Source: a virus (Duplodnaviria > Caudoviricetes). Taken from it: 54,897 nucleotides of DNA. Within the stretch, counting starts at the first letter, position 1, and each line of letters opens with the position of its first letter. The notes under the pieces are model-generated. The model did no database searches and was not told the DNA's origin. It saw only the letters and a program-made list of their open reading frames with translations. The stretch is from positions 1 to 54,897 of IMG/VR virus record IMGVR_UViG_3300009505_000017; one strand, 5' to 3'. Shown here piece after piece: positions 36-19,600 of the stretch. The position numbers were made by a program, and so were the translations under genes.

Positions 36-230
36 ATGCATCATTGTAAATACACTCAAGAGTATACAGACCATGATACATATTTACATGGTTGGGAAGA
101 TGATGAGTTATGTTTTGAAGAAAATGGAAGTTGTAATTGTGCTAATCCAGAGGTAAAGGAAGATCAATATATAGGGGAGTTATACTGTGACATCTGTTAT
201 CAGACTGTTCACACTCATACTACTATTTAA
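36..230 (+). CDS. Small acidic Cys-rich hypothetical protein (possible zinc ribbon)
   Basis: 64-aa ORF with CNC and CDIC Cys pairs; first of a run of tightly packed + strand ORFs. Confidence 0.6.
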   Translation: MHHCKYTQEYTDHDTYLHGWEDDELCFEENGSCNCANPEVKEDQYIGELYCDICYQTVHTHTTI

Positions 231-254
231 TAATACTAATTAAAAATAAACATT

Positions 255-506
255 ATGAGAACAAAAGATGAAGCGCACTCGGCAAAGTTTGACAAACTGT
301 TGCGAGGTAAGAAGATCAATTCATGTAGATACATGACTAGAGAAGAAGCCGACCAGTTTGGTTGGTACAAACGTCCATTGATTATAGTATTCACAGACGA
401 AAGCTATATCATATTACAATCGGACGATGAAGGTAACGAAGGAGGCGCAGCCTTGTACGAAGACATACCAAGTAAAGAGAACTATCACGTAATTTATACG
501 ATATGA
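255..506 (+). CDS. Hypothetical phage early protein
   Basis: 83-aa ORF, A-rich leader (aaataaacattATG), ATGA overlap with next ORF. Confidence 0.8.
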   Translation: MRTKDEAHSAKFDKLLRGKKINSCRYMTREEADQFGWYKRPLIIVFTDESYIILQSDDEGNEGGAALYEDIPSKENYHVIYTI

Positions 507-730
507 ATATAAACACAAAAGGAACATACATAATCGAGCAAGACCACTATGTATTAAGTATAGACTATACTTACTATTATAATACTGGCACATATGAGCA
601 ACCACCAGAAGCAGACATGGAAATAACAAGTGTCGAGCTAAACGGTATGGACATAACGGACTTCTATTGGGATTACGTTGATGACACATTACACACAGAG
701 GTGTGGGAATACGCACAAGATAATAACTAA
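503..730 (+). CDS. Highly acidic hypothetical protein
   Basis: 75 aa, about 16 D/E against one Lys; translationally coupled to the upstream ORF. Confidence 0.8.
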   Translation: MNINTKGTYIIEQDHYVLSIDYTYYYNTGTYEQPPEADMEITSVELNGMDITDFYWDYVDDTLHTEVWEYAQDNN

Positions 731-742
731 AATAAATAAACA

Positions 743-1006
743 ATGAAAGTAAGAATTTTACAACGTAGTGTATACTACAAAACGGCAGAGTTAGAGATAG
801 AAATCCCTAACGACATTGATGAGTTTGATATTCAGCAATATGTCAATGACAACGAAGACCTTTGGGTTGATGACATAGACCACAAGATAAACGAGTCTGA
901 ATTCCTCTTCGGACTTGGAATGGATAGTGGGGATTGGACAGACGATGACCAAGACTCCGAGTGGAGATACGAATGTGACGAACTAAAAATAGGAGGACAT
1001 TTATAA
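743..1006 (+). CDS. Highly acidic hypothetical protein
   Basis: 87 aa, about 25 D/E; A-rich leader. Confidence 0.8.
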   Translation: MKVRILQRSVYYKTAELEIEIPNDIDEFDIQQYVNDNEDLWVDDIDHKINESEFLFGLGMDSGDWTDDDQDSEWRYECDELKIGGHL

Positions 1007-1012
1007 TCAATT

Positions 1013-1419
1013 AAACAATTAGAAATTATGAAACTACACGATGTACCTAGAAACAGTAGAATAAGAGTAAAGACCAAAGATAAAGTGCCACCTGGCGCTC
1101 CTGAGATTGAATCAGGAGAAGAGCTTAACTTTAGATCCATAGACGGAATGTATAGCTATTGCACCAGAGACAATGGTGAGGTAGTACATTTAGCAGCATG
1201 GACAGACGTAGAAGTTGTAGTATAAAAGGCAAGATATTGCCAATTAGGGTTGACTTCTGTACAAAAAGAGCAATAGATTGCCTTTACTGTACAGCAAAGT
1301 TTTGAGTAAAGTACCTATTTTAAGTACTGTTCTCAAATTATTACTAACGACTAAAAAAGCAATCATTAATAATAATAACACACGTTAATGCGTGTAAAAA
1401 CAAACAATTAGAAATTATG
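1013..1419 (+). repeat. Exact 18-bp direct repeat AAACAATTAGAAATTATG at 1013-1030 and 1402-1419, each ending in a start codon
   Basis: Identical sequence read at both positions; a degenerate copy (aattagaaatatg) precedes the 2117 start. Confidence 0.85.
1028..1225 (+). CDS. Hypothetical protein
   Basis: 65-aa ORF starting within the 18-bp leader repeat. Confidence 0.8.
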   Translation: MKLHDVPRNSRIRVKTKDKVPPGAPEIESGEELNFRSIDGMYSYCTRDNGEVVHLAAWTDVEVVV

Positions 1420-1761: not shown

Positions 1762-2138
1762 TAGTATTGTTCACACTCATCATAGGGGTAGGTGCTACCC
1801 CTGTTGATGAGGTGTTGGTTACTGCAACAGTATATAATGCAGATCCAAGACAATGCAACGCAGACTATCTAACGACTGCGAGTGGTAAAAAGATAAACGA
1901 AAGCAACCCCCAGGGACACAGATGGATAGCTGTGTCAAGGGATCTAGAGCCATTGGGTTTTACTTTCGGAACTAAGGTATTAATAAGTAACGCAGGCGAA
2001 ATGAATGGAGTCTGGACCGTAGAAGATAGAATGAATAAAAGATGGGTACATAGGATAGATTTCCTTGTAAACAACGATATAAGATTAGGTAAATGGAATA
2101 ACGTAAAATTAGAAATATGGAGACCAAAGAAGAATTAA
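1737..2138 (+). CDS. Secreted 3D-domain (MltA-like / double-psi beta-barrel) cell-wall protein
   Basis: Hydrophobic N-terminus (RALIVLFTLIIGVGA), then VTATVY..TASG..IAVSRDL..FGTKV..VEDRM..RIDF, typical of the 3D domain; start may be 1716 or 1737. Confidence 0.8.
   Translation: MFVSSRALIVLFTLIIGVGATPVDEVLVTATVYNADPRQCNADYLTTASGKKINESNPQGHRWIAVSRDLEPLGFTFGTKVLISNAGEMNGVWTVEDRMNKRWVHRIDFLVNNDIRLGKWNNVKLEIWRPKKN
1768..1783 (+). repeat. Dispersed motif TGTTCACACTCATCAT (exact copies at 1768-1783 +, 5594-5609 +, 9181-9196 -; partial copies at 206-218 + and 17569-17580 +)
   Basis: Three exact 16-mers plus 13/16 and 12/16 contiguous matches read directly. Confidence 0.9.
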
Positions 2139-2461
2139 GAAATGGATTAGAGTTAGTTTTAGCACTTCAACTAACGTTAGAGTTAATGGACGAATATAGA
2201 TTAAAAGGATTGCCAAAGAAGTATGGTAATATGTTTAAGAACTCAATAGAGAAATCAATGTCTCAGACATACGATAGGCTTTACAAAAATGATCCAGAAT
2301 TTATGACCAACTCAATGAATATAAAGAATGAGATGATATCTTCAATAGCTTCTTTAAACGAAGTAGATGCTATTCTTTTTGGATCATTTACTCAGCACTA
2401 TATGGACAACATAGATGTTGCCAGAGAGAAAGGAACTGTGTTCTTTTCTAAACTATTATAA
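2117..2461 (+). CDS. Hypothetical protein
   Basis: 114-aa ORF overlapping the end of the 3D gene. Confidence 0.8.
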   Translation: METKEELRNGLELVLALQLTLELMDEYRLKGLPKKYGNMFKNSIEKSMSQTYDRLYKNDPEFMTNSMNIKNEMISSIASLNEVDAILFGSFTQHYMDNIDVAREKGTVFFSKLL

Positions 2462-2462
2462 G

Positions 2463-2600: not shown

Positions 2601-2623
2601 TAACTTAAATAAATAAAATAGAC

Positions 2624-3378: not shown

Positions 3379-3392
3379 AAAACAAATAAAAG

Positions 3393-3423: not shown

Positions 3424-3447
3424 TAAAACACAATTTAATTTAAAAAC

Positions 3448-3600
3448 ATGGGAAAATCAAGCGAAGAATTTATGAAACAAAGAGAGAGGTTTGAAGAGTC
3501 AATACCTCTACTAACATCATCATTCAATTGGGATCAATACTTTTTATCCCTACACACTAACCACTTAAATAAAATCAAAAATGAAAAGGGGAATATTTAA
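3448..3600 (+). CDS. Small hypothetical protein (50 aa; not in supplied track)
   Basis: MGKSSEEFMKQRERFEES...; directly after the promoter, with A-rich leader. Confidence 0.6.
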   Translation: MGKSSEEFMKQRERFEESIPLLTSSFNWDQYFLSLHTNHLNKIKNEKGNI

Positions 3601-3892
3601 TAAATACGTTGAATTCGTATGTGAAGAATGCGGAATAACAAAAGAAGAACTTTTTACTAAAAGTAGAAAGACTAAGTTAGCAATGTCGAGGTACTTGCTT
3701 TATTCTATATGCTATCAAAGACCTATGACAATAGTACAGATTGTTGATTTAATGTCTGAGAATGACTACGATACGTCTAGAACAAATATTGAATACGGAA
3801 TAGCTAAGATAAAAGAAATGAACGATGGAGATATTAATAGTTTAATTTCAATAGCCGTAAACAATATTTCAAAAGAAGAGTCGTTATGTTAG
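3581..3892 (+). CDS. DnaA domain IV-like helix-turn-helix protein (divergent)
   Basis: VCEECGITKEELFTKSRKTKLAMSRYLLY...SRTNIEYGIAKI resembles the DnaA C-terminal pattern (..SR....AR..A.Y...H.TV.YG..KI). Confidence 0.6.
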   Translation: MKRGIFNKYVEFVCEECGITKEELFTKSRKTKLAMSRYLLYSICYQRPMTIVQIVDLMSENDYDTSRTNIEYGIAKIKEMNDGDINSLISIAVNNISKEESLC

Positions 3893-4269: not shown

Positions 4270-4271
4270 TT

Positions 4272-4862
4272 ATGGGAGAAACAAAATCAACATTCAAAAC
4301 ATTAGCAGCGGTTAATGTTAAGGACAGAGTAGAAAAGAAAGGTAGATTCGATTACTTATCTTGGGCATATGCCTGGGCTATGATTAAAGATCAATACCCT
4401 GATGCAAATCGTAAGGTATATGAATCAGAATCCAATGAACTAAATTACTTTTCAGATGGAAGAACAGGCTATGTAAAGGTAGGTGTAACAATAAATGATG
4501 TAGAACACATTGATTATCTGCCTATTATGGGACACAACAATCAATCGTTAACATTAGATAAGATTACTTCATTCGCAGTAAACAAGACTATACAACGTAG
4601 TACAGTTAAAGCTATAGCTATGCATGGATTGGGATTATCTTTATGGGCAGGAGAAGACTTAGTAGATATCAGTGAGGCAGCACCTGCTGTTAAGCAAGAA
4701 GCTAAACCAACTCTAAAGAAGACAAGTGAGAAGTGGAATGATGTAGTTAATTACGTTAAGGCAAACAAGACAAATCCATTCGCTTCTACGATTAAAACAT
4801 TAGAGACTAAGTATATTATTTCATCAGCAATTAAAAAAGAATTAGGAGTTTATGTCAAGTAA
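4272..4862 (+). CDS. Single-strand annealing recombinase, Sak/Rad52-like (DUF1071 type)
   Basis: YLSWAYAW, LPIMGHNN, NKTIQRSTVKAIAMHGLGLSLWAGEDL motifs; next to exonuclease and SSB. Confidence 0.85.
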   Translation: MGETKSTFKTLAAVNVKDRVEKKGRFDYLSWAYAWAMIKDQYPDANRKVYESESNELNYFSDGRTGYVKVGVTINDVEHIDYLPIMGHNNQSLTLDKITSFAVNKTIQRSTVKAIAMHGLGLSLWAGEDLVDISEAAPAVKQEAKPTLKKTSEKWNDVVNYVKANKTNPFASTIKTLETKYIISSAIKKELGVYVK

Positions 4863-5589
4863 TATAATAGAGTCGCTAAGAGACGACTCAAAGTACTATG
4901 GTGACTTTGGTAAAAAGTATCTATCTAATTCAGATATCTATAGTTTACTAAACAATCCTAAGAACTTCAGGATTAGCCAAAAGGGATTACCTTTATTAAA
5001 AGGTGGTTACTTTCACACAGCTATGTTAGAGCCACAGAAGATAGGAGACTATCCTGTTATAGATGCTTCAACAAGAAGCACTAAAGCTTTCAAAGAACAT
5101 ATATTAGAGAACAATTTAGATCCATATGACGTCTTACTATCTAAGGAGGTAGATGAGATAACAACATGGGTTAATGCAATGAAATCTAACTTCGTAATGT
5201 ATAGCGACATATATGCTCAAGGTAATATATACGAACAACCTGCAATTGCTACCATATTTGGAATAGAGTGGAAAGGTAAGGCAGATATAGTTACAGCTGA
5301 TAAAGTTATAGACATCAAGACCACAGGTAACATAGATAAGTTTAAGTGGAGTGCAAATGATTATAACTATGATAGCCAGGCTTATATATACGAGCAGCTA
5401 TTCGGTAAGCCAGTTGAATTCTATATAATAGACAAGACCACATTGAAACTAAAGATAGCTAAACCATCAGAAGAAACGCTACTAAGGGGTCGTGATAAGG
5501 TTTTAAGAGCTATAGAAGTATATAATAAGTTCTTTGCTGAGGGCTCAGTAGAGGACGTTACACAGTACATAGAGTATGAACAGTTTTAG
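4852..5589 (+). CDS. PD-(D/E)XK RecE-like exonuclease (DUF3799 type)
   Basis: LSNSDI, G..FHTAMLEP, KGKADIV..IDIKTT, YNYDSQAYIY motifs. Confidence 0.85.
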   Translation: MSSNIIESLRDDSKYYGDFGKKYLSNSDIYSLLNNPKNFRISQKGLPLLKGGYFHTAMLEPQKIGDYPVIDASTRSTKAFKEHILENNLDPYDVLLSKEVDEITTWVNAMKSNFVMYSDIYAQGNIYEQPAIATIFGIEWKGKADIVTADKVIDIKTTGNIDKFKWSANDYNYDSQAYIYEQLFGKPVEFYIIDKTTLKLKIAKPSEETLLRGRDKVLRAIEVYNKFFAEGSVEDVTQYIEYEQF

Positions 5590-5656
5590 TATTTGTTCAC
5601 ACTCATCATCGGCAGCAAACGTCATTTAGTGCCGATATATAGATTATCATTTTAAA

Positions 5657-5687
5657 GGAGTCAGCGGTGCTTCTCCAACTAAGCACC
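5657..5687 (+). promoter_or_regulatory. Predicted H-type pseudoknot in the ssb leader
   Basis: GGAG (5657-60) pairs with CTCC (5673-76); GGTGCTT (5666-72) pairs with AAGCACC (5681-87). Confidence 0.5.
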
Positions 5688-5705
5688 CATTAAATACCAT
5701 TAATT

Positions 5706-5981
5706 ATGTCAAACGACAAAATATTTGCAGACGGATTTATCTTCAAGAGAAGAGAGAACGCACCAGAATTTGTAATCGGCAACATCAGCGTAAAAGTTCA
5801 AGATGCTGTTGCTTTTTTACATGAAAACCAAAAAAATGGATGGGTTAACCTAAATGTACTTAACAGTCAGGCAGGTAAACCATACATTGAACTTGACACT
5901 TTTGTACCCAAGAAGAAGGATAATGGAGTGGACACAGCACCTAACCAAGCACCTGTACAAGAGGCAGATTTACCCTTCTAA
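5706..5981 (+). CDS. ssb: Single-stranded DNA-binding protein (short phage type)
   Basis: 91 aa, beta-rich core, flexible tail ending QEADLPF; follows SSAP and exonuclease. Confidence 0.7.
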   Translation: MSNDKIFADGFIFKRRENAPEFVIGNISVKVQDAVAFLHENQKNGWVNLNVLNSQAGKPYIELDTFVPKKKDNGVDTAPNQAPVQEADLPF

Positions 5982-5996
5982 TTAACTAACTAAAAG

Positions 5997-6032
5997 AAGA
6001 CAAGGGGTTTAATTACCCCTTGTTTTTTCTTT
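5997..6032 (+). terminator. Intrinsic terminator after ssb
   Basis: AAGACAAGGGGT-TTAATT-ACCCCTTGTTTT stem followed by further Ts. Confidence 0.85.
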
Positions 6033-6135: not shown

Positions 6136-8568
6136 ATGAGCAATAACGTAACAATATTTAGAAACATAAAAGACACATCTACTCCGTTCTTTAAAGATAT
6201 GGCATCTATTCTTGATAGAATGAAAGATGGCAAGTCTAAGGATTTGATTAAGCAGATTAGGTCAGAGAAGAATAAAGAGGTTCGACAGGAACTAAAAAAG
6301 AATTTACCAGCAATTTGTTTTTCTGGAACATTTAATAAAAGAAATGATGATAGCATCATTGAACATAGTGGATTCATTTGCTTAGACTTTGATGGATACA
6401 AGACTAAAAAAGATATGTTAGCCGAAAAGGAAAGGTTATCAAAGGATAGATTCACATATTCTGTATTTGTATCGCCAAGTGGTAACGGATTAAAGTCTTT
6501 AGTAAAGATACCTGCAGATATTGAGAATCACAAGAACTACTTTACATCATTAGAAAAACATTATAACTCAGAATATTTCGATAAGACAAGTAAGAACATA
6601 TCAAGAGTATGTTACGAGTCTTACGATCCATTAATATTTATTAACTTAAACTCAAATGTTTGGGATAAGATTGAGGAACAGGAATACAAGGTTGTAGACA
6701 AATACTCTTCGAGACCAACTATACCAATAACAAATGAGAATAAGATAGTAGAAATACTTATGACTTGGTGGACAAGAAAGTACGGATTAGTAGATGGTGA
6801 AAGAAACAATAACGTTTATATACTCGCTGCTGCATTTAATGACTATGGAATTAGCAAATCATTAGCAGAGTATATCATGTCTCAGTTTGAATCAAAAACA
6901 TTTACTTCACAAGAGATAAAGACCACTATAGCATCAGCATACAGTCAGACACAAAACTTTGGGTCTAAGTATTATGAGGATGAGGATCAAGTTAATTCTG
7001 TTAAGATGAAACTAAAACGTGGAGTATCAAAAAAGGAAATTCGTCTTCAGTTAGCTGAATCCAATATTGAAGACGCTGTAGTTGAAGCTGTATTAACTTC
7101 TATTGAAGAAGATGAAAGCGACAAGAGATTCTGGAGTAAGAATGAGAAAGGTGTTATAACAATGATACACTACTTGTTTAGGGATTTTCTTGAGGACAAT
7201 GGATTCAAGAAGTTTTGTCCAGAGGGGAGTAAGAACTTTATATTTGTTAGAGTTACCAATAACCTTATAGACCACACTACAGAAGAAGAAATAAAAGACT
7301 TTGTACTTGGTTATCTTGAAAAGTTAGATGATATGTCTGTATATAATTTCTTTGCAGACAAAACTAGATTCTTTAGAGAAGAATTTCTTTCCCTGTTAGG
7401 TACTGTTGACGTTTACTTTGTAGAGGACGACAGGGACACAGCATATCTTTATTATAGAAATTGTGCTGTAAAAGTAACAAAGGATGGAAAGACCGCTATA
7501 GACTATCTAGACTTAGGTGGACACGTTTGGAAGGACCAGGTTATTGATAGAGACTTCCAAGTATGTGAGTCTTTTGAATGTGATTACAAAACATTCATAA
7601 AGAATATATCAGGAGATGATAAGCATAACATGAAGTCAATGAGAAGTACTATCGGATTTATGTTACACGCATATAAAAATTTAGCATACTGTCCTGCAAT
7701 AATATTAAATGATGAATCAGTATCGGAAGATCCTGAAGGAGGGACAGGTAAAGGTTTGTTTATCAATGCACTATCTCAAATGAAGAAGTTAGTTGTTATA
7801 GATGGTAAGGCTTTTAATTTTGAGAAAAGCTTTGCCTATCAATTAGTTTCAGCAGATACACAGATACTTTGTTTTGATGATGTAAAGAAGCATTTTGATT
7901 TTGAAAGATTATTTAGTGTAGTCACAGAAGGAATGACTCTTGAAAAGAAAAATAAAGATGCTATCAAGATACCATTTAGCAGGTCTCCAAAGGTAGCTAT
8001 AACAACAAACTACGCAATAAAGGGAAGAGGTAATTCATTTGAAAGACGAAAGTGGGAATTAGAGTTTAGACAATTCTATACAAAAGATTTTACCCCATTA
8101 GTAGAATTTGGAAAGTTATTATTTTCAGATTGGTCAGTAGAAGAATGGTGTGCATTTGATAATTATATGATTGAGAATGTTATGTTCTACCTGAACAATG
8201 GCTTGATAAAAGGTAATTGGAAAAACTCAAGTATAAAGACATTAGGTTCTAATACGTCACAAGACTTTATTGAGTGGTGTGATTTAACTTCTTCAGAGGT
8301 AACTAATGGAGTTATAAGACTTGACGAAAAACTATACACTAATGACCTTTATAATGAATTTGTTCAGGATAACCCTGACTTTTCAAGAACAGGAAAGAGA
8401 ACTGTATCAAGAACTGAATTTAATAAGTGGTTAAGATACTACGGAAAGTATAAGACAGGAAATGAGCCTAAGACCAATAGAGATATGCAGGGTAAATGGA
8501 TTATGTTTATAACAAATAATACAGCAAAAAATGAAGAAGAAAAAGACGAAACTAGACTTCCATTCTGA
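6136..8568 (+). CDS. Primase-helicase (BT4734/VirE-N primase, PriCT-like region, P-loop helicase)
   Basis: KKNLPAICFSGTF..HSGFICLDFD..FVSPSGNGLK (VirE-N/BT4734); GERNN (PriCT); Walker A PEGGTGKG, Walker B ILCFDD, motif C ITTN. Confidence 0.88.
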   Translation: MSNNVTIFRNIKDTSTPFFKDMASILDRMKDGKSKDLIKQIRSEKNKEVRQELKKNLPAICFSGTFNKRNDDSIIEHSGFICLDFDGYKTKKDMLAEKERLSKDRFTYSVFVSPSGNGLKSLVKIPADIENHKNYFTSLEKHYNSEYFDKTSKNISRVCYESYDPLIFINLNSNVWDKIEEQEYKVVDKYSSRPTIPITNENKIVEILMTWWTRKYGLVDGERNNNVYILAAAFNDYGISKSLAEYIMSQFESKTFTSQEIKTTIASAYSQTQNFGSKYYEDEDQVNSVKMKLKRGVSKKEIRLQLAESNIEDAVVEAVLTSIEEDESDKRFWSKNEKGVITMIHYLFRDFLEDNGFKKFCPEGSKNFIFVRVTNNLIDHTTEEEIKDFVLGYLEKLDDMSVYNFFADKTRFFREEFLSLLGTVDVYFVEDDRDTAYLYYRNCAVKVTKDGKTAIDYLDLGGHVWKDQVIDRDFQVCESFECDYKTFIKNISGDDKHNMKSMRSTIGFMLHAYKNLAYCPAIILNDESVSEDPEGGTGKGLFINALSQMKKLVVIDGKAFNFEKSFAYQLVSADTQILCFDDVKKHFDFERLFSVVTEGMTLEKKNKDAIKIPFSRSPKVAITTNYAIKGRGNSFERRKWELEFRQFYTKDFTPLVEFGKLLFSDWSVEEWCAFDNYMIENVMFYLNNGLIKGNWKNSSIKTLGSNTSQDFIEWCDLTSSEVTNGVIRLDEKLYTNDLYNEFVQDNPDFSRTGKRTVSRTEFNKWLRYYGKYKTGNEPKTNRDMQGKWIMFITNNTAKNEEEKDETRLPF

Positions 8569-8821: not shown

Positions 8822-9059
8822 AGGTTATTACGATTATGACGAAGTTTATTATGGTATGTTGAATTCATACGAAATGGTAGTTTACAACGTTCCTTTATCA
8901 GATGTAATTATTAGAGATGTGGAGTTTTTTATACATGATATAACTAAGCCTATTACTGTAGATGTTGTAGACGATCTTATTCAGTATTTTGAAGACATGG
9001 AAGACTATGAGAAATGTAAGATTTTATTGGAAAAAAGAAAAGAATATGATACAATTTAG
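8808..9059 (+). CDS. Acidic hypothetical protein with UVR-like C-terminal helix pair
   Basis: DLIQYFEDMEDYEKCKILLE resembles the UvrB/UvrC interaction motif (E.YE.A..L). Confidence 0.65.
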   Translation: MEKFEGYYDYDEVYYGMLNSYEMVVYNVPLSDVIIRDVEFFIHDITKPITVDVVDDLIQYFEDMEDYEKCKILLEKRKEYDTI

Positions 9060-10284
9060 AGATTATCAACAAAACATTATAGATAAGGGAACAGAAGTTT
9101 TATTAACTAAGAAATTTCTGTACCTGTCTATGGAGGTGAGAACAGGTAAGACACTTACCTCTCTAGGTATTCTAGATAAGATGATGAGTGTGAACAGAGT
9201 ATTGTTCATCACGAAGAAGAGAGCAATAAGCTCGATAGAATCAGATTACAATCTGCTTGATCCAGACTATGAACTGCAAGTTATAAACTATGAATCACTT
9301 CACAAGATCGACCAAGCAGTTTGGGATGCTGTAGTTTGTGATGAAGCACATGGTATGGGAGCTTTCCCAAAGCCAAGTAAAAGAGCCAAAGCTGTATCTG
9401 AACTTATTAGAAAAAACAAACCATATGTTATATTACTTTCAGGCACGCCAACGCCTGAGTCTTATAGTCAAATGTATCATCAAGTATATTCAATTCCAAA
9501 CAATCCATTTAATAAATATTCTAACTTTTATAAATTTGCTAGTGACTACGTAACAGTTACCACTAAAAGAATAGGTGGATTTATGGTGAATGATTATTCT
9601 GATGCCAAGGAAACCATAATTGATGACATGAATCCTTATACTATTTCATATACACAAAAAGAAGCAGGATTTGAATCTTCTATAAAAGAAAAAATTTTGT
9701 TTGTCGATGCTCCTGAAAGTTTAATGGTTATGTGTTCTAAGTTAAAGAAGCTGCTTGTTCTGGAAGGTGAAGATGAAGTTATACTAGCTGATACAAGTGT
9801 AAAGCTTATGCAGAAGCTACATCAAATGTATAGTGGTACTGTTAAGTTTGAAAGTGGAAATTCCATGGTCCTTGATTTGTTTAAAGCTGAATACATATAC
9901 GATAATTTTTGTTGTAATAAAATAGGAATATTCTATAAGTTTAAGGAAGAGCTTAACGCAATTAAGAAAGTCTATGGAGATAGTATATGCACTGATTTAG
10001 ATGAGTTTAACAGCACAGATAAGTCTATAGCCTTGCAAATTGTCAGTGGAAGAGAAGGAATATCTTTGCGTAATGCTAAATATTTAGTATATTACAACAT
10101 AGATTTTAGTGCTACAAGTTACTGGCAATCAAGAGATAGAATGACCACCAAAGAAAGACTTGAAAACGAAGTGTTTTGGATTTTCACAGAAGGAGGAATA
10201 GAAAGTAAAATATATAAAGCAGTAAGCAAAAAGAAGAATTATACTCTAAATCATTTCAAAAGAGATTTATTAACTTTAAATTAA
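9046..10284 (+). CDS. Superfamily 2 (SNF2/DEAD-like) helicase
   Basis: Q-motif FRDYQ, Walker A EVRTGKT, DEAH, LSGTP, GREGISL, QSRDR; start placed at MIQFRDYQ rather than 8989. Confidence 0.9.
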   Translation: MIQFRDYQQNIIDKGTEVLLTKKFLYLSMEVRTGKTLTSLGILDKMMSVNRVLFITKKRAISSIESDYNLLDPDYELQVINYESLHKIDQAVWDAVVCDEAHGMGAFPKPSKRAKAVSELIRKNKPYVILLSGTPTPESYSQMYHQVYSIPNNPFNKYSNFYKFASDYVTVTTKRIGGFMVNDYSDAKETIIDDMNPYTISYTQKEAGFESSIKEKILFVDAPESLMVMCSKLKKLLVLEGEDEVILADTSVKLMQKLHQMYSGTVKFESGNSMVLDLFKAEYIYDNFCCNKIGIFYKFKEELNAIKKVYGDSICTDLDEFNSTDKSIALQIVSGREGISLRNAKYLVYYNIDFSATSYWQSRDRMTTKERLENEVFWIFTEGGIESKIYKAVSKKKNYTLNHFKRDLLTLN

Positions 10285-10979: not shown

Positions 10980-11262
10980 ATTTGAATTGGACGAGTACTT
11001 TCTAAAACAAATGCATACATTTGAATTGGATGTAAAAAATAAAATAGCATCTAAAATAGATGAGCTAATAGGGTTAAAAAGCACAGCTGGAAAAATACAA
11101 AGCATAGCTGGTTATATTAATTTAAAAAAAGATATTGATATATTTTTTGTTTTAGATTACTATAGAGAAGCTGATTGCGCTCCTACTGTGCTAATAGACG
11201 TTAACGAAATAGAAGTAGACAGATACCTAGACTATATAAACTCTAATAAATATATTAAATGA
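10948..11262 (+). CDS. Hypothetical protein
   Basis: 104-aa ORF, coupled on both sides. Confidence 0.75.
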   Translation: MESEQKYIEDEFELDEYFLKQMHTFELDVKNKIASKIDELIGLKSTAGKIQSIAGYINLKKDIDIFFVLDYYREADCAPTVLIDVNEIEVDRYLDYINSNKYIK

Positions 11263-11627
11263 AAAATTCAGAAAAATTAATAATAGAAGCTGTAGAGTCA
11301 GCAACTGGGGTTTTGGATATAATGAAAAAGACTAGAAAAAGAGAGCATGTTGATGCCAGGCGAATAGCTTACATGATATTCAGGGAAACACAGTTTTACA
11401 CGTTTGAAAAAATAGGTGAATTGTTTAATAGAAATCATGCAACTGTATTGTTTGGGATTAGATCAGGTCAATCACTTATAGATTTTGACCCAAAGTTTAA
11501 AGAAAACTATTTACAATGCCTTGCTGAGATTAGGACTATAAACACTGAAAAAGAACAGATAAGACAAAAAATATTAGATTTAAAAAGAAAGTTATTAACA
11601 CTAGAAAAAATAGAAAATGGATTATAA
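11259..11627 (+). CDS. DnaA domain IV-like DNA-binding protein with C-terminal coiled coil
   Basis: KTRKREHVDARRIAYMI..TFEKIGELFNRNHATVLFG closely follows the DnaA C-terminal HTH signature. Confidence 0.8.
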   Translation: MKNSEKLIIEAVESATGVLDIMKKTRKREHVDARRIAYMIFRETQFYTFEKIGELFNRNHATVLFGIRSGQSLIDFDPKFKENYLQCLAEIRTINTEKEQIRQKILDLKRKLLTLEKIENGL

Positions 11628-13120: not shown

Positions 13121-13216
13121 ATGAAAGATAAATATTTTACAAAAATATTTGCATGGATAATTATATTGATAGTAACTTTTTTTATTTGGTCTAGTGTTTA
13201 TACATGGATATTTTAA
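13121..13216 (+). CDS. Small membrane peptide (31 aa; not in track)
   Basis: MKDKYFTKIFAWIIILIVTFFIWSSVYTWIF, one hydrophobic helix; fills the gap between two genes. Confidence 0.55.
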   Translation: MKDKYFTKIFAWIIILIVTFFIWSSVYTWIF

Positions 13217-13548
13217 TGATTAAAAAAGAATGGCACTTTATGGATAAGGCTAAACAAAGAAAACAAACTCCAGTTTATACAGGGGTGTTGATGTATTTCC
13301 CAGATGCTATAAAAGAAATAGCACAATGCAGTTATGCAGGGCAACAACAACATAACCCTGACCTTCCGTTAAATTGGGATAGAGATAAGTCAGGAGACGA
13401 ATTAGACGCTCTTACAAGGCACTTAATGGAATGTGGCACTGTAGATTCCGATGGAGTTAGACACTCGGCTAAAGTAGCCTGGAGAGCCTTAGCTAACCTA
13501 CAAAAAGAAATTGAAAATGAAAGAACACATAACAAGTCAAATTATTAA
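13204..13548 (+). CDS. dATP/dGTP diphosphohydrolase-like protein (DUF5664 type)
   Basis: FPDAIKEIAQCSYAG..NW..DALTRHL..DSDGVRHSAKVAWRALA pattern; start uncertain (13204, 13217 region or 13240). Confidence 0.7.
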   Translation: MDILMIKKEWHFMDKAKQRKQTPVYTGVLMYFPDAIKEIAQCSYAGQQQHNPDLPLNWDRDKSGDELDALTRHLMECGTVDSDGVRHSAKVAWRALANLQKEIENERTHNKSNY

Positions 13549-13627: not shown

Positions 13628-16600
13628 TCAGAAGTCTAAATTTTTAAGTTCATCTTCTAGTTTTTTTATTTTTCTACCAGCAGGCGAATTTTTCTGTTGT
13701 TTTCTAGCTTTAGATTTTCTAGCTTTTCTTTTTTTAAGTTCTCTTTCTCCATAGATTATTTTAAAATCTTCATCACTTAATTTTAAATCTTGCTGTTTAG
13801 AAGCTTTTATGTCAGACCAATTCTGAGCCATCATATATCTTCTTATATCCTTGTATAGTGGTAATGGTACTCCTGTAAACTGACTAGCCTCTAAAGCAGT
13901 TCTTAATGTCATAAACTCAGCTGCTGCTCTGTCGGCAACTTTTTTATCTTTGCTTCCCATTTTAGCAAGTAAATCACCCATTCTTAATAAACTACTAGCT
14001 TGTGGAGCTAAAGGCCCTGCACCAATTCTTATTGCCGACTCAGCTACACCTTCTTTCTCTAATTTTTGTTGGTTTATTACACTAAATATAATAGAATGTA
14101 TATATGGATTATATCCTTTGCCATCTTTGTCTGACCATAAACCTAAATCTTCTCCATATTCCTCGTTTAATTTTTCAATAGCTAAATTTATTGGAATCAT
14201 AGGAAAGTTTCCTGAAGTACCTCTTGTTATTAAAGAAACTCCTGCACCTGCTAATTGTCTAGTGGTTAACTCTTCATAATCTATGTCATCTTTATCATCA
14301 AGTCCTAACACTCCATTGAACATAGAAGCTAGTGCTTTGTACATAACAACGTACAAACTCATTCTAGTCATGATTCCTGCTAATGTAGCACCTCCTTTTA
14401 TAGCACCCATTTCTCCTTGTCCAACCATAGAAGCAACAGCTTGTCTTGCTGTTACAAATTCATTGATAGTAAACCGAGCCATATAGGAGTTTATTGACTT
14501 ATATAATATCATTCTAGCACCATCTTGATCTGAGAGTTGATTTTTCAACACGCCACTAAAGGGGTCATTAGATGTTGCCGCTTGAGTAACTTTAGCATCA
14601 GCTGCTCTCTTGGCAGCTTGAATAGCATCTGCATACTTAGTCATGTATGCTTCGTCATTTTTTGATATTTTATCTGCGTCCATGTCTTGACCAGTTTCCT
14701 GTTTAAAAACCTTAGCAAAAGTTCCAAAAAATAAAGGTCTTGAAATCATTTTATCAGGAGTACTTAATAAATTATCTGCCAAAAACTCTGAACCATCTGC
14801 AAACTTTTTACCAAATCGAGCTGCGTATTGAAAAGTACTTTTAACATTACTACCACTAGCTCGTTTACTTCCTTTTTTGTTTCTAACTACACCAGCGTTT
14901 TCTGATTTAGAACCTCCTAGTATTTCTGAACCCCAATTTTTAGTTACAGTTGTAGACCCTACATTTTCTGCAAAAGACAATCCGTTTTGCATTAAAGATA
15001 ATTTTGAATATTTTCCTAACCCTAATGCTAATTCTTTAGGAGCTGACATCAATCCAAATGTCAAGTTACTTCCAAGTTCTGCCACAGCTCTTGGAGCAGA
15101 TGCTAGCGTACTATAATAACCAATTTTTCTTGCTGAATCAAACCACTTTCCTCCTATAACGTCTGTACTAAAATTACTAGACAAAACCTTATTAATAGAT
15201 TCATCATATGCTCTTGACAAAGAAACAGTTGCTTCTATTACTTCTTTTGTAGCATTGTCTTGTTCAGAAAGTTTAGTTAATTGAGTTAAAGCTTTTCTAG
15301 ATGTTTGTATTTCATTAGTTAAATAGTAATCCATACCTGCCATTCTTAAAGCTCTTAGTGCTGTAGCTACAGGATCAAAATCAATTGCCTTTGCTCCTGG
15401 AGTTCTACTTATAGATGTTTTAGATTCAGTACTTGTTTGTGGATTTATGTAGTTTTTCTGTGATATTAATTGTTGGTCTAATTTGTCAGTTGTAGCATCA
15501 ACTTTGTGATGAACATAATTGTTCAATAAGTCTAATTTATTACCTCTTACAATAGTTGTCGCATAGGCTTGCTTGTCGCCTAAAGCACCATAAATTTCCT
15601 GCATTATACCTATCGCCTTCATTACTTGTGGAGATAAATTTTGTTTCATCTTCTTAGTTGTAATGACTCCTCCTTCGCTATTCTTTGCTTTTATATCGAG
15701 TAATATATCTATGTCAGCTTGAGTATAATTGCTTTTTGTTTTAGAATTGTTAAAGTTTTCTACAGTCTTGTCTATAAATTTATTTGCTTCTGCAACTCCT
15801 TTATTACCTGCGTTTGATTCGCTTTCTAAAGCTAGTAAGTATGTTTGTATTTCAAACCTTCTTCTTACTGCAGGATTAGTTCCTTCTTTGTAAGTAGGAG
15901 CTATTATCTGTTCTACAGCATCAAGCTTATCTGTTAGTCTTCCTGACCAAGTTTTAAACTGACTGTACTTTGTGGCTATTGGTTCAAAACTATTATTTCT
16001 TATAGTGTTGTTTTTATAGTTTCCAAAAGCATTATCTACTGCAGATAAAGGATTAGTCCTTAGCATCTCTAATGATGTTGTGGAATTTGCTCCCCTTTTT
16101 GTGGCGTTTTTTAAACCAGCTTTTAAAGCAGCTTCGGCCCTGCTTTTGACCATAGCTATTTTATTTTTAGTAGTTCCATATTTGTCTACTAAAGGACGCA
16201 TGTCATAAGCCCTACTATTTATTGACTGACCAAGTTTGTTTGCAGCGTGTGTATAATGACCATTATTAATGTTTTCAAGACTAACTTCTAATAAATCTAA
16301 TTGCTTACCTGTTAAGCCAATTAGGTCGCTGTCTTTAATGTTTTGAAACACTTGAACACCACCTGCTTCTTTAGTTGTGTTGTCAAGGCTTTTTAAACTT
16401 ATACCCTTAGACCTAGATTTTATTTTTGTTATAATGGCCTGTCTATTCTCAGCAAATTTATTAGCAGCTTCTACAAGCTCTTGATTTTCATCAGTCTCTG
16501 CTGAGTTAATTTTATCTATAAGAGTTTGTAATGTAAATGAATCTAGTTTATCTAAGTCGTTTTCAATAAACTTAGAATCTTCTGATATTAAAGTTTCACC

Positions 16601-19600
16601 ATCTACATCTTCATTAATAATTTTATCTACTATAGTTTTTAAAGTTTTAGTTTCTTTAGTTTCAGTCTCTTCATCTGTATCTTGAATGTTTTCATTATAC
16701 AAAGAATCAGCCATGTTTTGAGAATCTATTATTAACTGATTATCTAACTTTACATTTTGTTTTTGCTTTAGAAGATTACTTAAGAAATCATTATAACCAT
16801 CTATGTTTTCACTAGTAAGATTTTTAGTTGGAGTATTTAGTATAGTTCCTAACCTAGATATAAGGTCTGGATTTAATCCATAGTCTCCTTTATTTAATCT
16901 TGTGGTCACTCTATTATTAAGCTTCTCTGCTTTCAAAAGTTTTGCTGCGTAATCAGCGTCATTAAATACTTTTTCTGAATACTCTATTAATTCTTGTACA
17001 GCCACTTGATTATCAAGATTAACACTATTAACTTTGTTTATAACAGCTTTTGTTTGTGCTGCAGTAATAGTTCCCTTTTTACCTTTAGAATATATCTTTA
17101 TCTGTTTATTAAGGTCTTTTCTTTTGGTTTTTAAATCTTGTTTACCTTCTCTGTTGGCCTTGTTCCACGCTTTCCAAAATCTTTTACGCTGAGTATTTTC
17201 TCCTTCTTGCTTTGCCTTATCAGTTCTAGTGGTACTCTTTATAGATTGTAAAATACCTTTATATGTATCAGCCGTTACAGTTTGACTATTTGTTTTAGCA
17301 ATGGCTTCTACCTCAGCCTGTACTTCTGCTTCATTTGCAGCATATAAATCTATCTGCTCATTTGAAAAGTTAGTCTCTCCTTTCGCTATTTTAGTAGCTA
17401 ATCTTTTTGTTTTAGATTTATCCTTAGGAACATTTTTTCTTTTCTGTGTAACTAACGCATCGATCTCTGCTTGATTCTCAGCATAAAACTGTTGAGCTTC
17501 ATCACCAAACTCTTGAGTAGATTCACCATCTACTAATCTATTAGCAAATGATTCAACCTTATTATCATTGTTCACACTCACACCTTTCTTTGCTGAGGAA
17601 GGTTGAGTAGATGTCTGATTAGTTTTAGCTGCGTCATTTGATGCAATCTTTTCTGCATAAGCTTTAGCTTCTTTAGAAGTTTTAAAGCTTTTAGTTAAAG
17701 CATTGCTTCTAGTCATTTGACCACCTTGATTTGTATTAACTCTTACCTCAAATCTATAATCAGTATTTTTTCTGGCAGAAGGTTGACCTTGGTCGTTTTG
17801 AGCCGAAATATTAACCTCTACTTTATCAGAAGAATAGTTTTCATATCTACCTGCTGAGTCAGGGGAATTTGGTTTTAAGAGTTCAACATCTGTCTCCGTA
17901 GTCGTGTCGATAGTTGTATCGGTTTGCGTGTCACCTTCTTCGACTTTCGTTTCGGTATCTGTCTCAACGTCTCCTTCTCCCACTTGCTGCAGTTCCACTT
18001 CGGAGTCTGCCCCATCTGTTTGGCTTCCTCCATCATCTTGTAACACTTGTTTCTCTGTGCTTGGTTTTTGAATGGCATCGTTTTCTTTTTTAGTTTCGCT
18101 TTCCTTATCTTTTTCTAATGCAGCTTCATTAGCTGTTTCAACAGGAAAAGCTAAGGCTTGCTTTTCTTCCATTGATAACTTATTAAAGTTTTGTACAGCT
18201 CTACTTCTAATTTCGCTGTTATTTATTTTATAGTTTTGTTCACCTGCAGCTTCTTTTTCAGCAACTAACTCTTTGCCTGCATCATCCATTAGTTTTTGTT
18301 TTGATTTGTTATTTACAAAATCAAAGTTGCTGTTTTTAATTATGTTGTTTTTTAAATCCTGAATCTGAACATCAAGATAAGGTGAGAAAACTTCAGATAC
18401 TTTTTTCTCTGATTCTAATTGCTTAATTTTATTTAAGTCACTCATCACCTGTAAAGATGTTTCAGCACTTAAATTTGATGGTAAACCATTAATGGTTTCA
18501 TTAAATATTTTAACATCACTCATTAAGTTATCAGCTTGCTGTTGCGTATAAATACCTCTCTTTACTTGTGAATCTAAAAGTGATTGTGTTTTTTTTACAT
18601 TACTAGCTAATAAAGCTAAAGATTTCATTTGATCAATAGCTCTACCACCTCGTCCAGTCATACTAAAAGACCTAGTTGTATTTGCTTTTAAATCTCCTGC
18701 AACAGGCATTAAGATACCTGCGCTTAAAGATATTATGGAGGTGTTAGCAAAGTCATCTAAACTAATAGTCTCCTTCATTATTTGTTCACCTGCTTGTTCG
18801 TTTATGTCTGAACCAATAATATAAGCTTGTGCGCCTTGTTGAATGTTTTCTTGAAAAAATTCTTTTCCACCTTCAGTTAAATATACAGGAACATTTCTTA
18901 TAACTCCATCTAATGTTTTTCGTAAATAAGACCTAGACGCTTCAATCCCTGCTCCTTGCGCATATCTGTTAATTGTATTCTCAACAATTTTTTGTTTTAC
19001 TTTTGTTCCAAATATCTTATCCATAGCAACACGCTGTGTAGATATTGGGGCTGTTAAAACACCTAGTGCATATCCCTGAGTCGCTGCTTCAGAAGCTAAT
19101 AAATTTGCTTCTTCGTTTGATAAACCTGCATCTAGAGCTGACTTTCTAACTTGTGACGCTAATGAGCTACTCATTAAAGTACCCTGAGCAATCATAGCTG
19201 AAGCTGTTGAAGCTCTCATAGGTACTTTTTCTAACAAAGAAACAACTTGTCTACCTTGCTTGTATTTAGATGCAAATGCAATTCCTTTTACAGTTTGACC
19301 TGCCATTCCAACACCCCTAGTAAGAGCTATCTGAAGTAGCATATCTGAAGCCACACCTGCAGTTGTTACTGTTGCTCCTGTGCCACTAAAACTACTTACA
19401 TCAACTCCATTTAACTGAACTTGTTTTCTTATTTCTTTTATTTGTTCTGGCTCTAATACGCTGCTTACTCTTATCTTTAAATCTAAATCATATATTTCTC
19501 CGTTGTCATCAATCATATACTCTCTACCATTTGCAAAAGCGCTTTTACCACTTGCATAGGTATATCTAAGCATATCATCTCTGTTAAGTTCTGTTTCAGC

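Follow-up and report, generated by a model that had tools for sequence, protein, structure and literature searches.

A strand-polarized 15-nt DNA word in marine Flavobacteriia phages, a probable recognition site and possible nick site

A 15-nt word dispersed through the genomes of uncultured marine Flavobacteriia phages is, on comparative evidence, very probably a self-contained asymmetric recognition site that is read on DNA by a protein of the phage lineage. The first-pass annotation had interpreted it as a DnaA-box-like motif in a phage with two DnaA domain-IV proteins. As a whole that interpretation is partly supported: the word appears to be a real signal for a phage factor, and it is probably not a DnaA box. 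We tentatively favor a site at which a strand-specific nick or cleavage promotes recombination, a reading held with well short of even confidence. A site that is only bound, as a roadblock, origin or terminus, is nearly as likely.

Copies of the word and their conservation

The window, which is the whole stretch of 54,897 nt that was analyzed, is a linear IMG/VR virus record that is 91% complete, and the unsampled part may hold further copies. The core TGTTCACACTCA was found at 206+, 1768+, 5594+, 9185-9196(-) and 17569+. These copies and the features discussed with them are as follows.

206..221, + strand: motif copy, core 12 nt and first 13 nt exact, 2 mismatches (13/16 overall by another count)
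1768..1783, + strand: exact 16-mer, at a mosaic joint
1784..2461, + strand: two-gene insert (678 nt), starting directly 3' of the 1768 word
3581..3892, + strand: DnaA domain-IV-like protein, below the Pfam cut-off
5594..5609, + strand: exact 16-mer in the intergenic spacer after the PDDEXK exonuclease gene
5605..5650, + strand: 41-nt insertion directly 3' of the 5594 motif, placement ambiguous by 5 nt
5664..5688, + strand: hairpin with loop CTCC(A/T)ACT in the leader of ORF 5706-5981
6136..8568, + strand: primase-SF3 helicase with BT4734-like N domain, PriCT_1, DUF5906 and a C-terminal winged-helix-like domain
9181..9196, - strand: exact 16-mer inside a helicase gene
11259..11627, + strand: DnaA domain-IV-like protein, above the Pfam cut-off
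17569..17580, + strand: 12-nt core inside a virion-type gene, at a mosaic joint
45.5-46.4 kb: 42-bp tandem array
51503..51814, - strand: 103-aa very basic protein, phrog_6437, candidate reader or nickase
51831-52283: winged-helix-like gene, conserved in all relatives

The three exact 16-mers and the partial copies at 206 and 17569 were confirmed as first annotated, as were the two copies just past stop codons. The 1768 copy lies 6 nt past the stop of ORF 1417-1761; it is also within ORF 1737-2138, where it encodes a hydrophobic LFTLII stretch. The 5594 copy lies 4 nt past the TAG of ORF 4852-5589, the PDDEXK exonuclease gene, and the primase-helicase gene starts 527 nt downstream of it. The 206 copy overlaps the last codons of ORF 36-230. 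The other two copies are antisense to the genes that contain them, at 9181 in the SNF2-type helicase ORF 8989-10284, past the Walker A motif, and at 17569 in the 2594-aa ORF 13628-21412, where relatives read TGTTCACACTCATCAC. With the preceding base, three copies read TTGTTCACA (at 1767, 5593 and 17568), again as annotated.

The word is over-represented. No non-low-complexity 12-mer exceeded 3 copies in any of 200 order-3 Markov simulations, while the window has 5, and 1/200 simulations gave any 16-mer at ≥3 copies. Matches with ≤3 mismatches numbered 4 against 0.74 expected, a count reached in 2/100 shuffles. For k=12-16 the word was the only repeat with ≥3 copies besides the 42-bp tandem array and A/T-rich simple words, and its 7-8-mer sub-words were not enriched outside the full sites.

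The decisive support for the word is comparative. Exact 12-mers occurred 2-5 times per record in 15/15 related records examined (G001-G015), which agrees with the idea of a dispersed phage-specific network; a reversed control word gave 0-3 matches per record. Sites number 3-6 per genome in this motif-bearing group, and a sister clade (5 records) had zero copies at ≤1 mismatch. The logo, tTGTTCACACTCATCAy, has 15 invariant nt with flanks that are not conserved (61 distinct contexts). Assignment to a Bacteroidota phage also held, in that all 87 terminase matches of the window were phages of Flavobacterium, Cellulophaga, Tenacibaculum or Maribacter, plus one uncultured record.

Judging from sequence, the constraint is on DNA and not on protein, as had been suggested, because copies lie in three reading frames and on both strands and because the word dictates the helicase residues. 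The helicase copy falls in a variable linker after Walker A, where it reads MMSVN, and this linker is unrelated in motif-less genomes. The copy is exact in 9/10 primase-near loci, with 1 mismatch in the other (L122). At 5594 the word is a clean 15-nt presence/absence unit with intact flanks when compared with G001, G002, G006 and G009.

The annotation had also proposed that the DnaA-IV proteins (3581, 11259) or host DnaA read the word. The likeness to a DnaA box is real to the extent that, with the preceding T, the first 9 nt are one base off the quoted consensus, and the window phage does encode two DnaA domain-IV-like proteins. Neither paralog tracked the motif, however. By tblastn the 11259 family was absent from motif-bearing G011, G013 and G014 and the 3581 family from motif-bearing G015, while G012 (68% complete) matched neither. 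Both families were present in the motif-less clade, so the expected co-occurrence was not found, and the 11259-family recognition helix (N-K/R-N-H-A-T/S-V/I) hardly differs between genomes with and without the motif. The DnaA box reading is further weakened because all 15 positions are equally invariant, not just the 9 that resemble the box. Unlike DnaA boxes, the copies are not clustered, and host genomes held scattered single matches only.

Strand polarity and mosaic joints

The sites follow absolute strand and not gene direction, and are thus antisense in the late arm. With the primase gene placed on the + strand, the sites to its left are on +, as is every site of the late (minus-strand) arm. 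A single - site, right of the primase gene, was found in the window, G001-G006, G008, G009, G011 and G014, and G013 fits this pattern by site class. G020 has 5 forward sites and 1 reverse, G028 has 4/4 on one strand, and the sites of G015 read +,-,-,-.

Immediately 3' of the word, homology between genomes is lost. The 1768 joint has homology to G001/G002 on its left and to G006/G009/G010 on its right; the G001/G002 HSPs run up to 1783, and the G006/G009 HSPs begin at 1760-1762. A G004 HSP (92% identity, 4379 nt) ends at 17580, and at the 206 copy homology to relatives starts only 35-46 nt after the word. Over all pairs, 38 distinct HSP ends fell within the motif ±8 nt versus 10.1 expected, although HSP ends may be biased to any conserved island and to gene borders. 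From the 5' side 22 HSPs stop at +11..+24, and 30 HSPs start at +25..+56.

Inserts occupy the same edge. The insert at 1784..2461, comprising a phrog_21574 protein gene with a hydrophobic N-terminus and then ORF 2117-2461, separates the motif from a conserved non-coding block (2470-2620) that is within ~45 nt of the motif in G001-G003. The near-identical contig L041/L079 and one metatranscriptome contig both lack the 41-nt insertion at 5605..5650, the joint 5604->5646 being seen in run X17. The hairpin at 5664..5688 is conserved over 10 sequences, with 8 predicted pairs, 3 of which show compensatory double changes. Several metatranscriptome contig ends lie 0-16 nt from 4/5 sites (190, 1788, 5646-5665 and 9172/9173).

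Nick, binding site or RNA element

If the word is a nick site, we infer the following route. A single-strand nick or cleavage would be made at the word or just 3' of it, comparable to the localized single-strand interruptions known from T5, from phiKMV-like phages and from tf, a LUZ24-like phage. The nick would turn into a break during replication, and the break would be repaired from a co-infecting relative by the phage Sak annealing protein and the PDDEXK exonuclease (4272-5589). A nick fixed to one strand would explain why sites follow absolute strand rather than gene direction. Passage from nick to break to repair would explain homology breaks exactly at the 3' edge of the word, the inserts directly 3' of it and a short hypervariable stretch beside it. 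The contig ends near the sites give weak support, though, coming from assembled contigs, they may perhaps reflect strain mosaicism. The one conserved inverted copy and the +,-,-,- order of G015 argue against a nick, since known nick systems are one-stranded.

The candidate enzyme or specificity factor would be the small basic protein of 51503-51814. Among 333 window ORFs of ≥30 aa, this ORF (listed as 51503-51844) was the sole one to track the motif, being present in 9/9 near-complete motif genomes, at 66-86% protein identity, and in 0/4 motif-less genomes; since all four motif-less genomes belong to one clade, the co-occurrence amounts to one evolutionary contrast. The protein is possibly HNH-like, a kinship that we treat as a lead. 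Its AF2 model contains a beta-beta-alpha unit at pLDDT 70 with D-V-S-H ... N-R, and among Pfam-bearing Atlas clusters the nearest are HNH_3/HNH at 0.92. Searches gave no Pfam match at E up to 10 and no Foldseek PDB match below E 5, and hhalign did not match the protein to the HNH of MW202828.1. G003 and G006 have Arg in place of the putative catalytic His60 though these keep 4 and 3 sites, which counts against the nick reading. So does the breadth of the family, which extends far beyond the motif: relatives of the protein are encoded by 513 stretches of the viral collection, and among 80 fetched loci only 4 held the exact core, with 46 word matches versus 35 control-word matches at ≤3 mismatches.

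A replication site that is only bound is unlikely but is the strongest rival. The primase-SF3 helicase, an alternative reader whose gene lies between the 5594(+) and 9181(-) copies, could bind through its C-terminal domain to single inverted sites flanking its own gene, as P4 alpha binds ori and crr; a DnaA-IV-like protein could be the binder instead. Alternatively, a Tus-like monomer could make polar fork barriers, with the origin between 5594 and 9181 and outgoing forks passing the sites until stopped at 17569(+) or 9181(-), either side of the gene-arm convergence at ~13.6 kb. In the window and 10/11 mapped records the primase gene has one or more sites on either side, and the innermost - and + window sites are 4.4 and 3.9 kb away from where the arms converge. 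In P4, the annotated 'ori type 1 repeats' (TGTTCACC, variants TGTTCACA) have the heptamer TGTTCAC in common with the word; their 16 copies are spread over ori and crr, to either side of alpha. P4 alpha and pRN1 ORF904 are described, in the available part of PMC2777425, as primase plus SF3 helicase plus C-terminal winged helix, an architecture that the window protein may resemble. Its last 150 aa are modeled as helix-helix-helix plus beta-hairpin (pLDDT 78), the weak top Foldseek matches are mostly winged-helix DNA binders, and Pfam WH_KIN17 was hit at E 0.009. However, the P4 alpha domain (1KA8) was not among the 50 best Foldseek matches, none of which was below E 0.07. The C-terminal recognition helix differs little between genomes that have the motif and those that lack it, and the domain is just 32-57% identical among genomes with an invariant word. 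The sites are single rather than clustered iterons, no Tus-like gene was found, and GC skew in the window shows no switch other than the gene-strand switch. Binding alone also leaves the 3'-edge breaks and inserts unexplained.

Rather less probable is a polar transcription roadblock, in which a phage protein on the word would stop RNA polymerase arriving from the TGTT side, attenuating the early-left operon at 206, 1768 and 5594 and stopping antisense read-through past convergence at 9181(-) and the late-arm (+) sites. Sense-oriented early-arm copies do lie at gene ends or in spacers, and copies in the two long ORFs (helicase and 2594-aa) run antisense to the transcription of those ORFs, although G010 has a sense copy within its helicase ORF. 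The precedent is L5, whose type of repressor binds asymmetric 13-mers as monomers, with the block abolished by site reversal (PMC9283540, available part). The gene at 51831-52283 could supply such a protein, but the motif-less clade also has it, at 48-54% identity. The stoperator analogy of the first-pass annotation fails on orientation, which follows transcription in L5 (same source) and absolute strand here. Barriers 4 kb within the opposite arm would be an odd design, sites number 3-6 here versus >20 in L5 (same part of PMC9283540), and the 40 ORFs scanned against Pfam included no integrase or immunity repressor.

An RNA-level element is improbable. Copies would pair in trans, early transcripts carrying UGUUCACACUCAUCA and helicase and late mRNAs its perfect complement, or the word would act in RNA processing or antitermination; in some genomes the complement precedes a late start codon by 15 nt. 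The window and 10/10 mapped records (G007 via 1-mismatch variants only) have copies both sense and antisense to local transcription, at least one of each, but one-strand placement in two convergent arms yields both senses automatically. In G006, G007, G010, G011 and G013 the complement comes after a stop codon and precedes the next late ATG by 14-19 nt. The best-covered RNA contigs begin right after the 5594 copy, where depth is higher, although contig depth is no basis for ranking expression. Variant copies (C to A, T to C) would mispair with their partners, complementarity never extends past the word, and hairpins (≥5 nt complementarity) are no commoner downstream (31/56 sites) than upstream (33/56). 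The DNA-level joints would stay unexplained.

Still less credible is a single-element promoter for a phage-specific polymerase or sigma factor, even though the word forms a 15-nt unit on its own, early-arm copies precede genes, often with purine-rich runs next, and RNA contig depth rises past 5594. RNA polymerase was not detected, the giant proteins having no PDB or PHROG polymerase match or DFDxD-type motif; 2/5 window copies would drive antisense transcription, the 1768 copy is within the coding start of its gene, and sigma-70-like sites are at background (73 vs 79.3). A passive linker, a functionless short conserved sequence offering microhomology for module exchange, would suit the mosaic joints but is the least plausible reading, since 15 letter-perfect nt in genes whose flanks differ by 25-35%, kept in genomes down to ~52% primase identity, need direct selection, and the conserved polarity would be unexplained.

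Comparison with known systems

Short conserved regulatory sequences occur at the joints of exchanged modules in T4-type promoter-stem-loop cassettes and lambdoid 'linker' sequences. The word resembles these in its position, but they are promoters or gene-boundary sequences in one orientation, whereas the word also occurs inside genes and antisense. Tus-Ter and RTP-Ter are polar fork barriers with a handful of asymmetric sites, some within genes, and they share with the word a split into two opposed orientations about a region of converging replication or transcription. Here the groups are unbalanced at 4:1 and no Tus- or RTP-like protein was found; we know of no such system in phages.

P4 shares with the window phage TGTTCAC and sites in both orientations flanking a primase-SF3 helicase gene. 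It has 6-10 clustered 8-bp repeats per region in place of single 15-bp words kilobases apart, and the window phage has further copies in late genes. The P4-type initiator has a C-terminal winged-helix-type domain, which is weakly supported in the window protein, and its primase is DnaG-type rather than AEP-type (available part of PMC2777425). The L5/Cluster A stoperators are likewise dispersed, asymmetric single sites of ~13-15 bp with an orientation that matters, many of them in short spacers after stop codons (PMC9283540, in the part available), but they serve a temperate immunity system and no lysogeny genes were among the ORFs scanned here.

For the nick reading, the closest systems are those of T5, phiKMV-like phages and tf. 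According to the accessible portion of PMC3517423, their nick sites have a short, asymmetric consensus, number a few to 14 per genome and lie on one strand only, at places conserved among relatives; co-evolution of site and nickase has been proposed. That portion describes no link between nick sites and mosaic joints. The word is 15 nt against 9 in tf, one conserved copy is on the other strand, and the hosts are Flavobacteriia instead of Proteobacteria. The sites of the window phage share with those systems their small number, their asymmetry and a strand fixed regardless of gene direction, and in tf, too, the sites keep to one strand across two convergent gene sets (same portion of PMC3517423).

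Genome context and copies of the word

The window record is linear and 91% complete, and its genes lie on two arms.

1 to ~13.6 kb, plus strand: genes for GP88, two DnaA-domain-IV-like proteins, a Sak annealing protein, a PDDEXK exonuclease, an AEP primase-SF3 helicase, an SNF2 helicase, VRR-NUC and a DNA repair exonuclease
13.6 kb onward, minus strand (late arm): genes for a giant protein, structural proteins, portal, terminase, amidase and GroES/GroEL

Terminase matches (87 records) were limited to Flavobacterium, Cellulophaga, Tenacibaculum and Maribacter phages plus the uncultured MW202828.1, and the original assignment to a Bacteroidota phage therefore stands. ORF 13204-13548 has a dATP/dGTP diphosphohydrolase N-terminal domain (PF18909, E 2e-10), which hints at nucleotide-pool manipulation or modified DNA. 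GroES (Cpn10, E 2e-10) adjoins a 523-aa ORF within 52278-54118, and the MW202828.1 orthologue of that ORF is annotated groEL. Tandem repeats of 42 bp (14 codons) form a long array at 45500-46500 within ORF 43486-47457, which encodes a 1323-aa protein. ORF 42187-42675, with a weak 2OG-Fe(II) oxygenase match, is present only in the window and the related record G004, with a 53% match in G018. Neither a tRNA nor an Rfam family was found in the window.

The window was scanned for the 16-mer TGTTCACACTCATCAT and its 12-nt core TGTTCACACTCA.

206, plus strand: two mismatches against the 16-mer, near its 3' end
1768, plus strand: exact 16-mer, 6 nt past a stop codon and within the next ORF
5594, plus strand: exact 16-mer, 4 nt after a stop codon
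9181-9196, minus strand: exact 16-mer, antisense in a helicase gene
17569, plus strand: 12-nt core, antisense in the gene for a 2594-aa protein

These positions agree with the first-pass annotation, which had placed two copies a few bases after stop codons and others inside unrelated genes. With the 42-bp tandem array (45.5-46.4 kb) and A/T-rich simple sequence set aside, this word alone reached at least three copies in the window at k = 12-16. In 200 order-3 Markov simulations of the window, non-simple 12-mers reached at most 3 copies, versus 5 observed, and any 16-mer at three copies arose in 1/200. The logo of 61 distinct contexts is t-TGTTCACACTCAT-C-A-y with free flanking positions. It describes a single asymmetric 15-nt site that lacks both a partner half-site and conserved flanks. 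The first 9 nt of the word occur in 202 papers, of which the 15 listed concern primers or unrelated items; no published description of the word was found. Letter-perfect words dispersed through unrelated genes are uncommon, and as a rule they serve a specific machine as its handle.

The constraint had been attributed to DNA rather than protein. Sense copies fall in three reading frames. In the helicase, the copy spans the linker that joins two conserved blocks, SLGI and VLFITKK; with the word this linker is (K)MMSVN(R/K), with synonymous variation in the codons beside the word, and without it the linker has unrelated residues and is one codon shorter than that of the window. Six genomes have the word in the spacer that separates the exonuclease gene from ORF 5706, while exactly those 15 nt are missing in four, with both flanks intact. 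The word therefore behaves as a unit. Judged from these three lines of sequence comparison, the attribution is correct and the constraint is on DNA.

Distribution, strand and mosaic joints

Relatives of the primase were surveyed at 48 IMG/VR loci. The word was present at 0-1 mismatch in 10/10 loci with 77-100% primase identity; at 62-68% identity, 37/38 loci had nothing and 1/38 had a 2-mismatch match. Whole records of the related phages G001-G015 had 2-5 exact 12-mers apiece and, in addition, a few variants with 1 mismatch, and a reversed control word gave 0-3 matches per record. In whole-record scans of the motif-less clade (G016-G019 and MW202828.1), the word was absent at up to 1 mismatch and at background level at 2 mismatches. 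Presence of the word is not a simple function of relatedness, because the primases of motif-bearing G011, G013, G014 and G015 are more distant from that of the window (51-55% identical) than those of the motif-less clade (62-64%), and these genomes keep the word. G012 is an incomplete record with no primase match.

The single-base changes C9A and T10C are found naturally in the word. A variant, TGTTCACAATCA, occurs in G006 and G007. Another record, G020, has three copies of TTCACACCCAT alongside three of TTCACACTCAT, and a 44.9-kb phage, G028, has four of TTCACACTCAT. No copies were found in the cultured relatives Flavobacterium elemoF, Cellulophaga phi19:3 and phi38:1, and Tenacibaculum Gundel_1. 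Three exact copies in the order +,+,- are found on a 10-kb contig that was binned with the MAG of an uncultured Lutibacter (G021 contig C83, locus L271/L298). This contig is probably part of a related phage genome and offers a possible hint to the host. A species-genome scan with the 16-mer gave, among the matches listed, scattered single matches with this phage-like contig as the exception. Public runs from 14 studies contain the window stretch or part of it, and the word is common to abundant uncultured podophage-like genomes of marine and sediment Flavobacteriia.

Repeated words of their own were seen in several relatives. Motif-less MW202828.1 (L006 43.7-50 kb, L181) has 14 copies of the palindrome GTCGTTAACGAC between small genes of its early region, mostly a few bases past stop codons. 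A 16-mer occurs three times in G018 (50762, 53309, 53713) and a 13-mer four times in G016 (52392-55488), both in the early arm only; motif-bearing G015 has an early-region 13-15-mer in four to five copies (33312-35977). Within each of these last three genomes the repeats share one orientation. G017 had no analogous repeated word. The repeats of the motif-less clade were rejected as equivalents of the word, as their architecture differs from that seen here.

Orientation was compared with the primase set on the plus strand. Copies to the left of the primase are on the plus strand. Late-arm copies, which lie inside the giant gene or in a ~35-nt spacer between two late genes, are also on the plus strand and hence antisense to the late genes. 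To the right of the primase there is one minus copy, located either in the helicase linker or where a 129-aa ORF starts. This one-inverted-copy pattern is found in the window (4/5 copies on one strand), G001-G006, G008, G009, G011 and G014, and in G013 by site class; G020 repeats it with 5 forward copies and 1 reverse. The exceptions are G015 (+,-,-,-) and G010, whose three copies are all plus, one being a sense copy in its helicase. Only G010 and G028 have all copies on one strand. With site classes counted as independent, the tally is ~13:2 (+:-) outside the zone right of the primase and 1:3 inside it, which is suggestive of polarity, not strong evidence for it.

Positions of the word coincide with points of genome mosaicism. 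Homology of the window to G001 and G002 stops at 1783, the last base of the word, and homology to G006 and G009 starts at 1760-1762. A 4379-nt local alignment block (HSP) with G004 (92% identity) stops at 17580, exactly where the core ends, in mid-course of the giant gene. When all pairs of 16 genomes were compared, 38 distinct HSP ends fell within 8 nt of the word versus 10.1 expected, a count to be read knowing that local alignments tend to end at conserved islands, that many sites are gene borders and that orthologous sites are dependent. When HSPs were oriented by the word, 22 coming from the 5' side stopped at +11..+24 and 30 started at +25..+56, which leaves, immediately 3' of the word, a short stretch that does not align. 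Two inserts of the window start directly 3' of the word as well: one of 41 nt, which is polymorphic (joint in run X17), and one of 678 nt with two genes. A conserved non-coding block of ~150 nt at 2470-2620 is common to G001-G003, where it lies at most ~45 nt after a motif copy; in the window two genes lie between motif and block. In practical terms, the word precisely marks this lineage and its recombination joints.

Candidate readers

That the word is recognised on DNA by a phage-encoded protein is well supported. The following window products were considered.

3581-3892, plus strand: DnaA domain-IV-like protein
11259-11627, plus strand: DnaA domain-IV-like protein
6136-8568, plus strand: primase-SF3 helicase
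51503-51814, minus strand: basic 103-aa protein

All 333 window ORFs of at least 30 aa were screened for presence in 9 near-complete motif genomes and absence from 4 motif-less genomes, the latter being one clade. ORF 51503-51844 (true start 51814) was the sole ORF present in 9/9 and 0/4. Its product is very basic and 66-86% identical across the motif genomes. It had no Pfam family, and neither Foldseek nor hhalign supported an HNH fold. The AF2 model (pLDDT 70) has three helices and a beta-beta-alpha unit (strands 56-61 and 64-69, helix 70-75, with D57, H60 and N73), and the nearest Pfam-bearing ESM Atlas clusters are HNH_3 and HNH (0.92). His60 is changed to Arg in G003 and G006, and the protein family is far wider than the motif. 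In three genomes with the protein and no motif (G024, G025, G027) the search for an analogous one-strand word gave one 11-mer with 4 copies each, too weak to call. The protein is a candidate reader, possibly of HNH type.

The primase-helicase is the other candidate. Its domain order, a primase-SF3 helicase with a C-terminal winged-helix-like domain, fits a P4-type initiator. In P4 the annotated type-1 iterons, TGTTCACC or TGTTCACA, flank the alpha primase-helicase gene; the word shares a heptamer with the TGTTCACC-type repeat, and two crr copies of P4 read TGTTCACACTG. P4 repeats are clustered, several within a few hundred bp, whereas the sites here are single, with no excess of 7-8-mers outside them. 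A literature search pairing the P4 octamer with phage P4 found nothing. The C-terminal fold (domain at residues ~690-800) is winged-helix-like with a best Foldseek E of 0.08, and 1KA8 was outside the top 50. This domain did not differ between motif-bearing and motif-less genomes. The last 150 aa of the protein (8116-8565) are only 51-57% identical in those relatives with 77-82% identity over the full length; by this comparison the domain is evolving much faster than the rest of the protein.

The first-pass annotation had proposed one of the DnaA-IV proteins, or host DnaA, as the reader of a near-DnaA box. The 9-mer TTGTTCACA does not fit the box TTWTNCACA, having G at the W position, and the preceding T is found in only 66% of the 61 contexts. 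The 11259 protein matches DnaA domain IV (45.5 bits against a cut-off of 31.5; 1J1V match E 6e-4), and the 3581 protein scores 23.3 bits, under the cut-off. Motif-bearing G011, G013 and G014 have no member of the 11259 family, whereas motif-less G016-G018 do, and the recognition helix of the family is the same in both groups. The 3581 family, missing from G015, occurs in all four motif-less genomes, and its recognition helix varies among motif-bearing genomes that share the invariant word. With each paralog absent from some motif genomes and both present in motif-less ones, the paralogs fail to co-vary with the word, and neither is convincing as its reader. Host DnaA alone would leave the 15 invariant positions, the lack of sub-word enrichment and the motif-less sister clade unexplained.

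Mechanisms weighed and comparison with known systems

The proposed reading, a strand-specific nick or cleavage at or just 3' of the word, accounts for more of the observations than any other. It would fit the placement of sites on one strand through both convergent arms, as described for tf, the phiKMV-like phages and T5 (PMC3517423), and their small number and conserved locations. It would also explain why breaks, inserts and hypervariability lie on one fixed side of the word, and it would be consistent with the co-occurrence of a possible HNH-type protein and with the recombination module (Sak plus exonuclease) encoded by the same phage. What weakens it is that the inverted copy is conserved, that His60 has become Arg in two genomes, and that the nick itself is putative. 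Should the word prove to be such a site, localized nicks, a phenomenon still unexplained, would be known from Bacteroidota phages too; a candidate enzyme would be at hand, and nicks would be tied to modular exchange, which touches the long-standing question of the origin of phage mosaicism.

A larger scheme can be drawn, which we consider unlikely. In it a small HNH-derived protein would mark or nick 3-6 fixed 15-bp words as strand-polar punctuation, serving both as polar landmarks for forks or polymerases (origin and convergence zone) and as programmed crossovers for module exchange between related phages, even in the middle of the helicase and of the 2594-aa virion gene. If this is true, modular evolution would have a mechanism dedicated to it and would not rest on accidents of homology.

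Binding-only readings take the word as an ori/crr-like element, a Tus/Ter-like polar barrier or a stoperator-like site. They account better than a nick does for the inverted copy and for the sites flanking the primase gene, but worse for the joints. For a phage group without a cultured motif-bearing member, a binding-only site would define either the origin/terminus or the punctuation of transcription.

RNA-level and promoter readings are the least supported. Expression data were assembled contigs of public runs, in which uncovered parts and depth differences are not readable as expression. The best-covered piece in three metatranscriptome runs from two studies (5646/5655/5665 to 5908/5965/5917) lies just past the 5594 copy and ahead of a hairpin at 6000-6023, and metatranscriptome contigs end near 4/5 sites; both carry little weight, since strain mosaicism or assembly can produce them. 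RNA contigs give their best cover in a unit of hairpin, small conserved ORF (5706-5981) and hairpin: the leader hairpin, 5664-5688, has the loop CTCC(A/T)ACT and compensatory stem changes, and the one after the ORF, 6000-6023, has a 9-bp stem. An obligatory hairpin beside the word was rejected (mean z -1.35, yet complementarity of at least 5 nt in 33/56 sites upstream versus 31/56 downstream), as were sigma-70-like promoters and intrinsic terminators, whose counts at the sites were at background. An N4- or crAss-type RNA polymerase in the giant protein, reading the word as a promoter, was also rejected: the protein had no PDB or PHROG polymerase match, and a search for D-x-D-x-D found only one string, DMDAD. 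For the crAss-like model phage, early promoters are reported to lack a common motif (bioRxiv 10.1101/2020.03.07.982082).

Dispersed, asymmetric, phage-specific sites are a known kind of element, represented by L5 stoperators and nick consensus sites. The suggested likeness to an L5 stoperator network holds in part. L5-type stoperators are dispersed, asymmetric single sites of ~13 bp, and the word is likewise a single, asymmetric site, of 15 nt; but stoperators follow the direction of transcription, whereas the word follows the absolute strand, with late-arm and helicase copies antisense. Stoperators also form part of a temperate immunity system with repressor and integrase; a Pfam scan of 40 window ORFs gave no integrase or repressor family. 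Localized nick (sci) sites share with the word an asymmetric consensus at conserved places, but all are on one strand, whereas exactly one word copy is opposite in most relatives and three are in G015. The word differs from both kinds of site on a defining point; its link to mosaic joints would be new if confirmed, as would a candidate reader.
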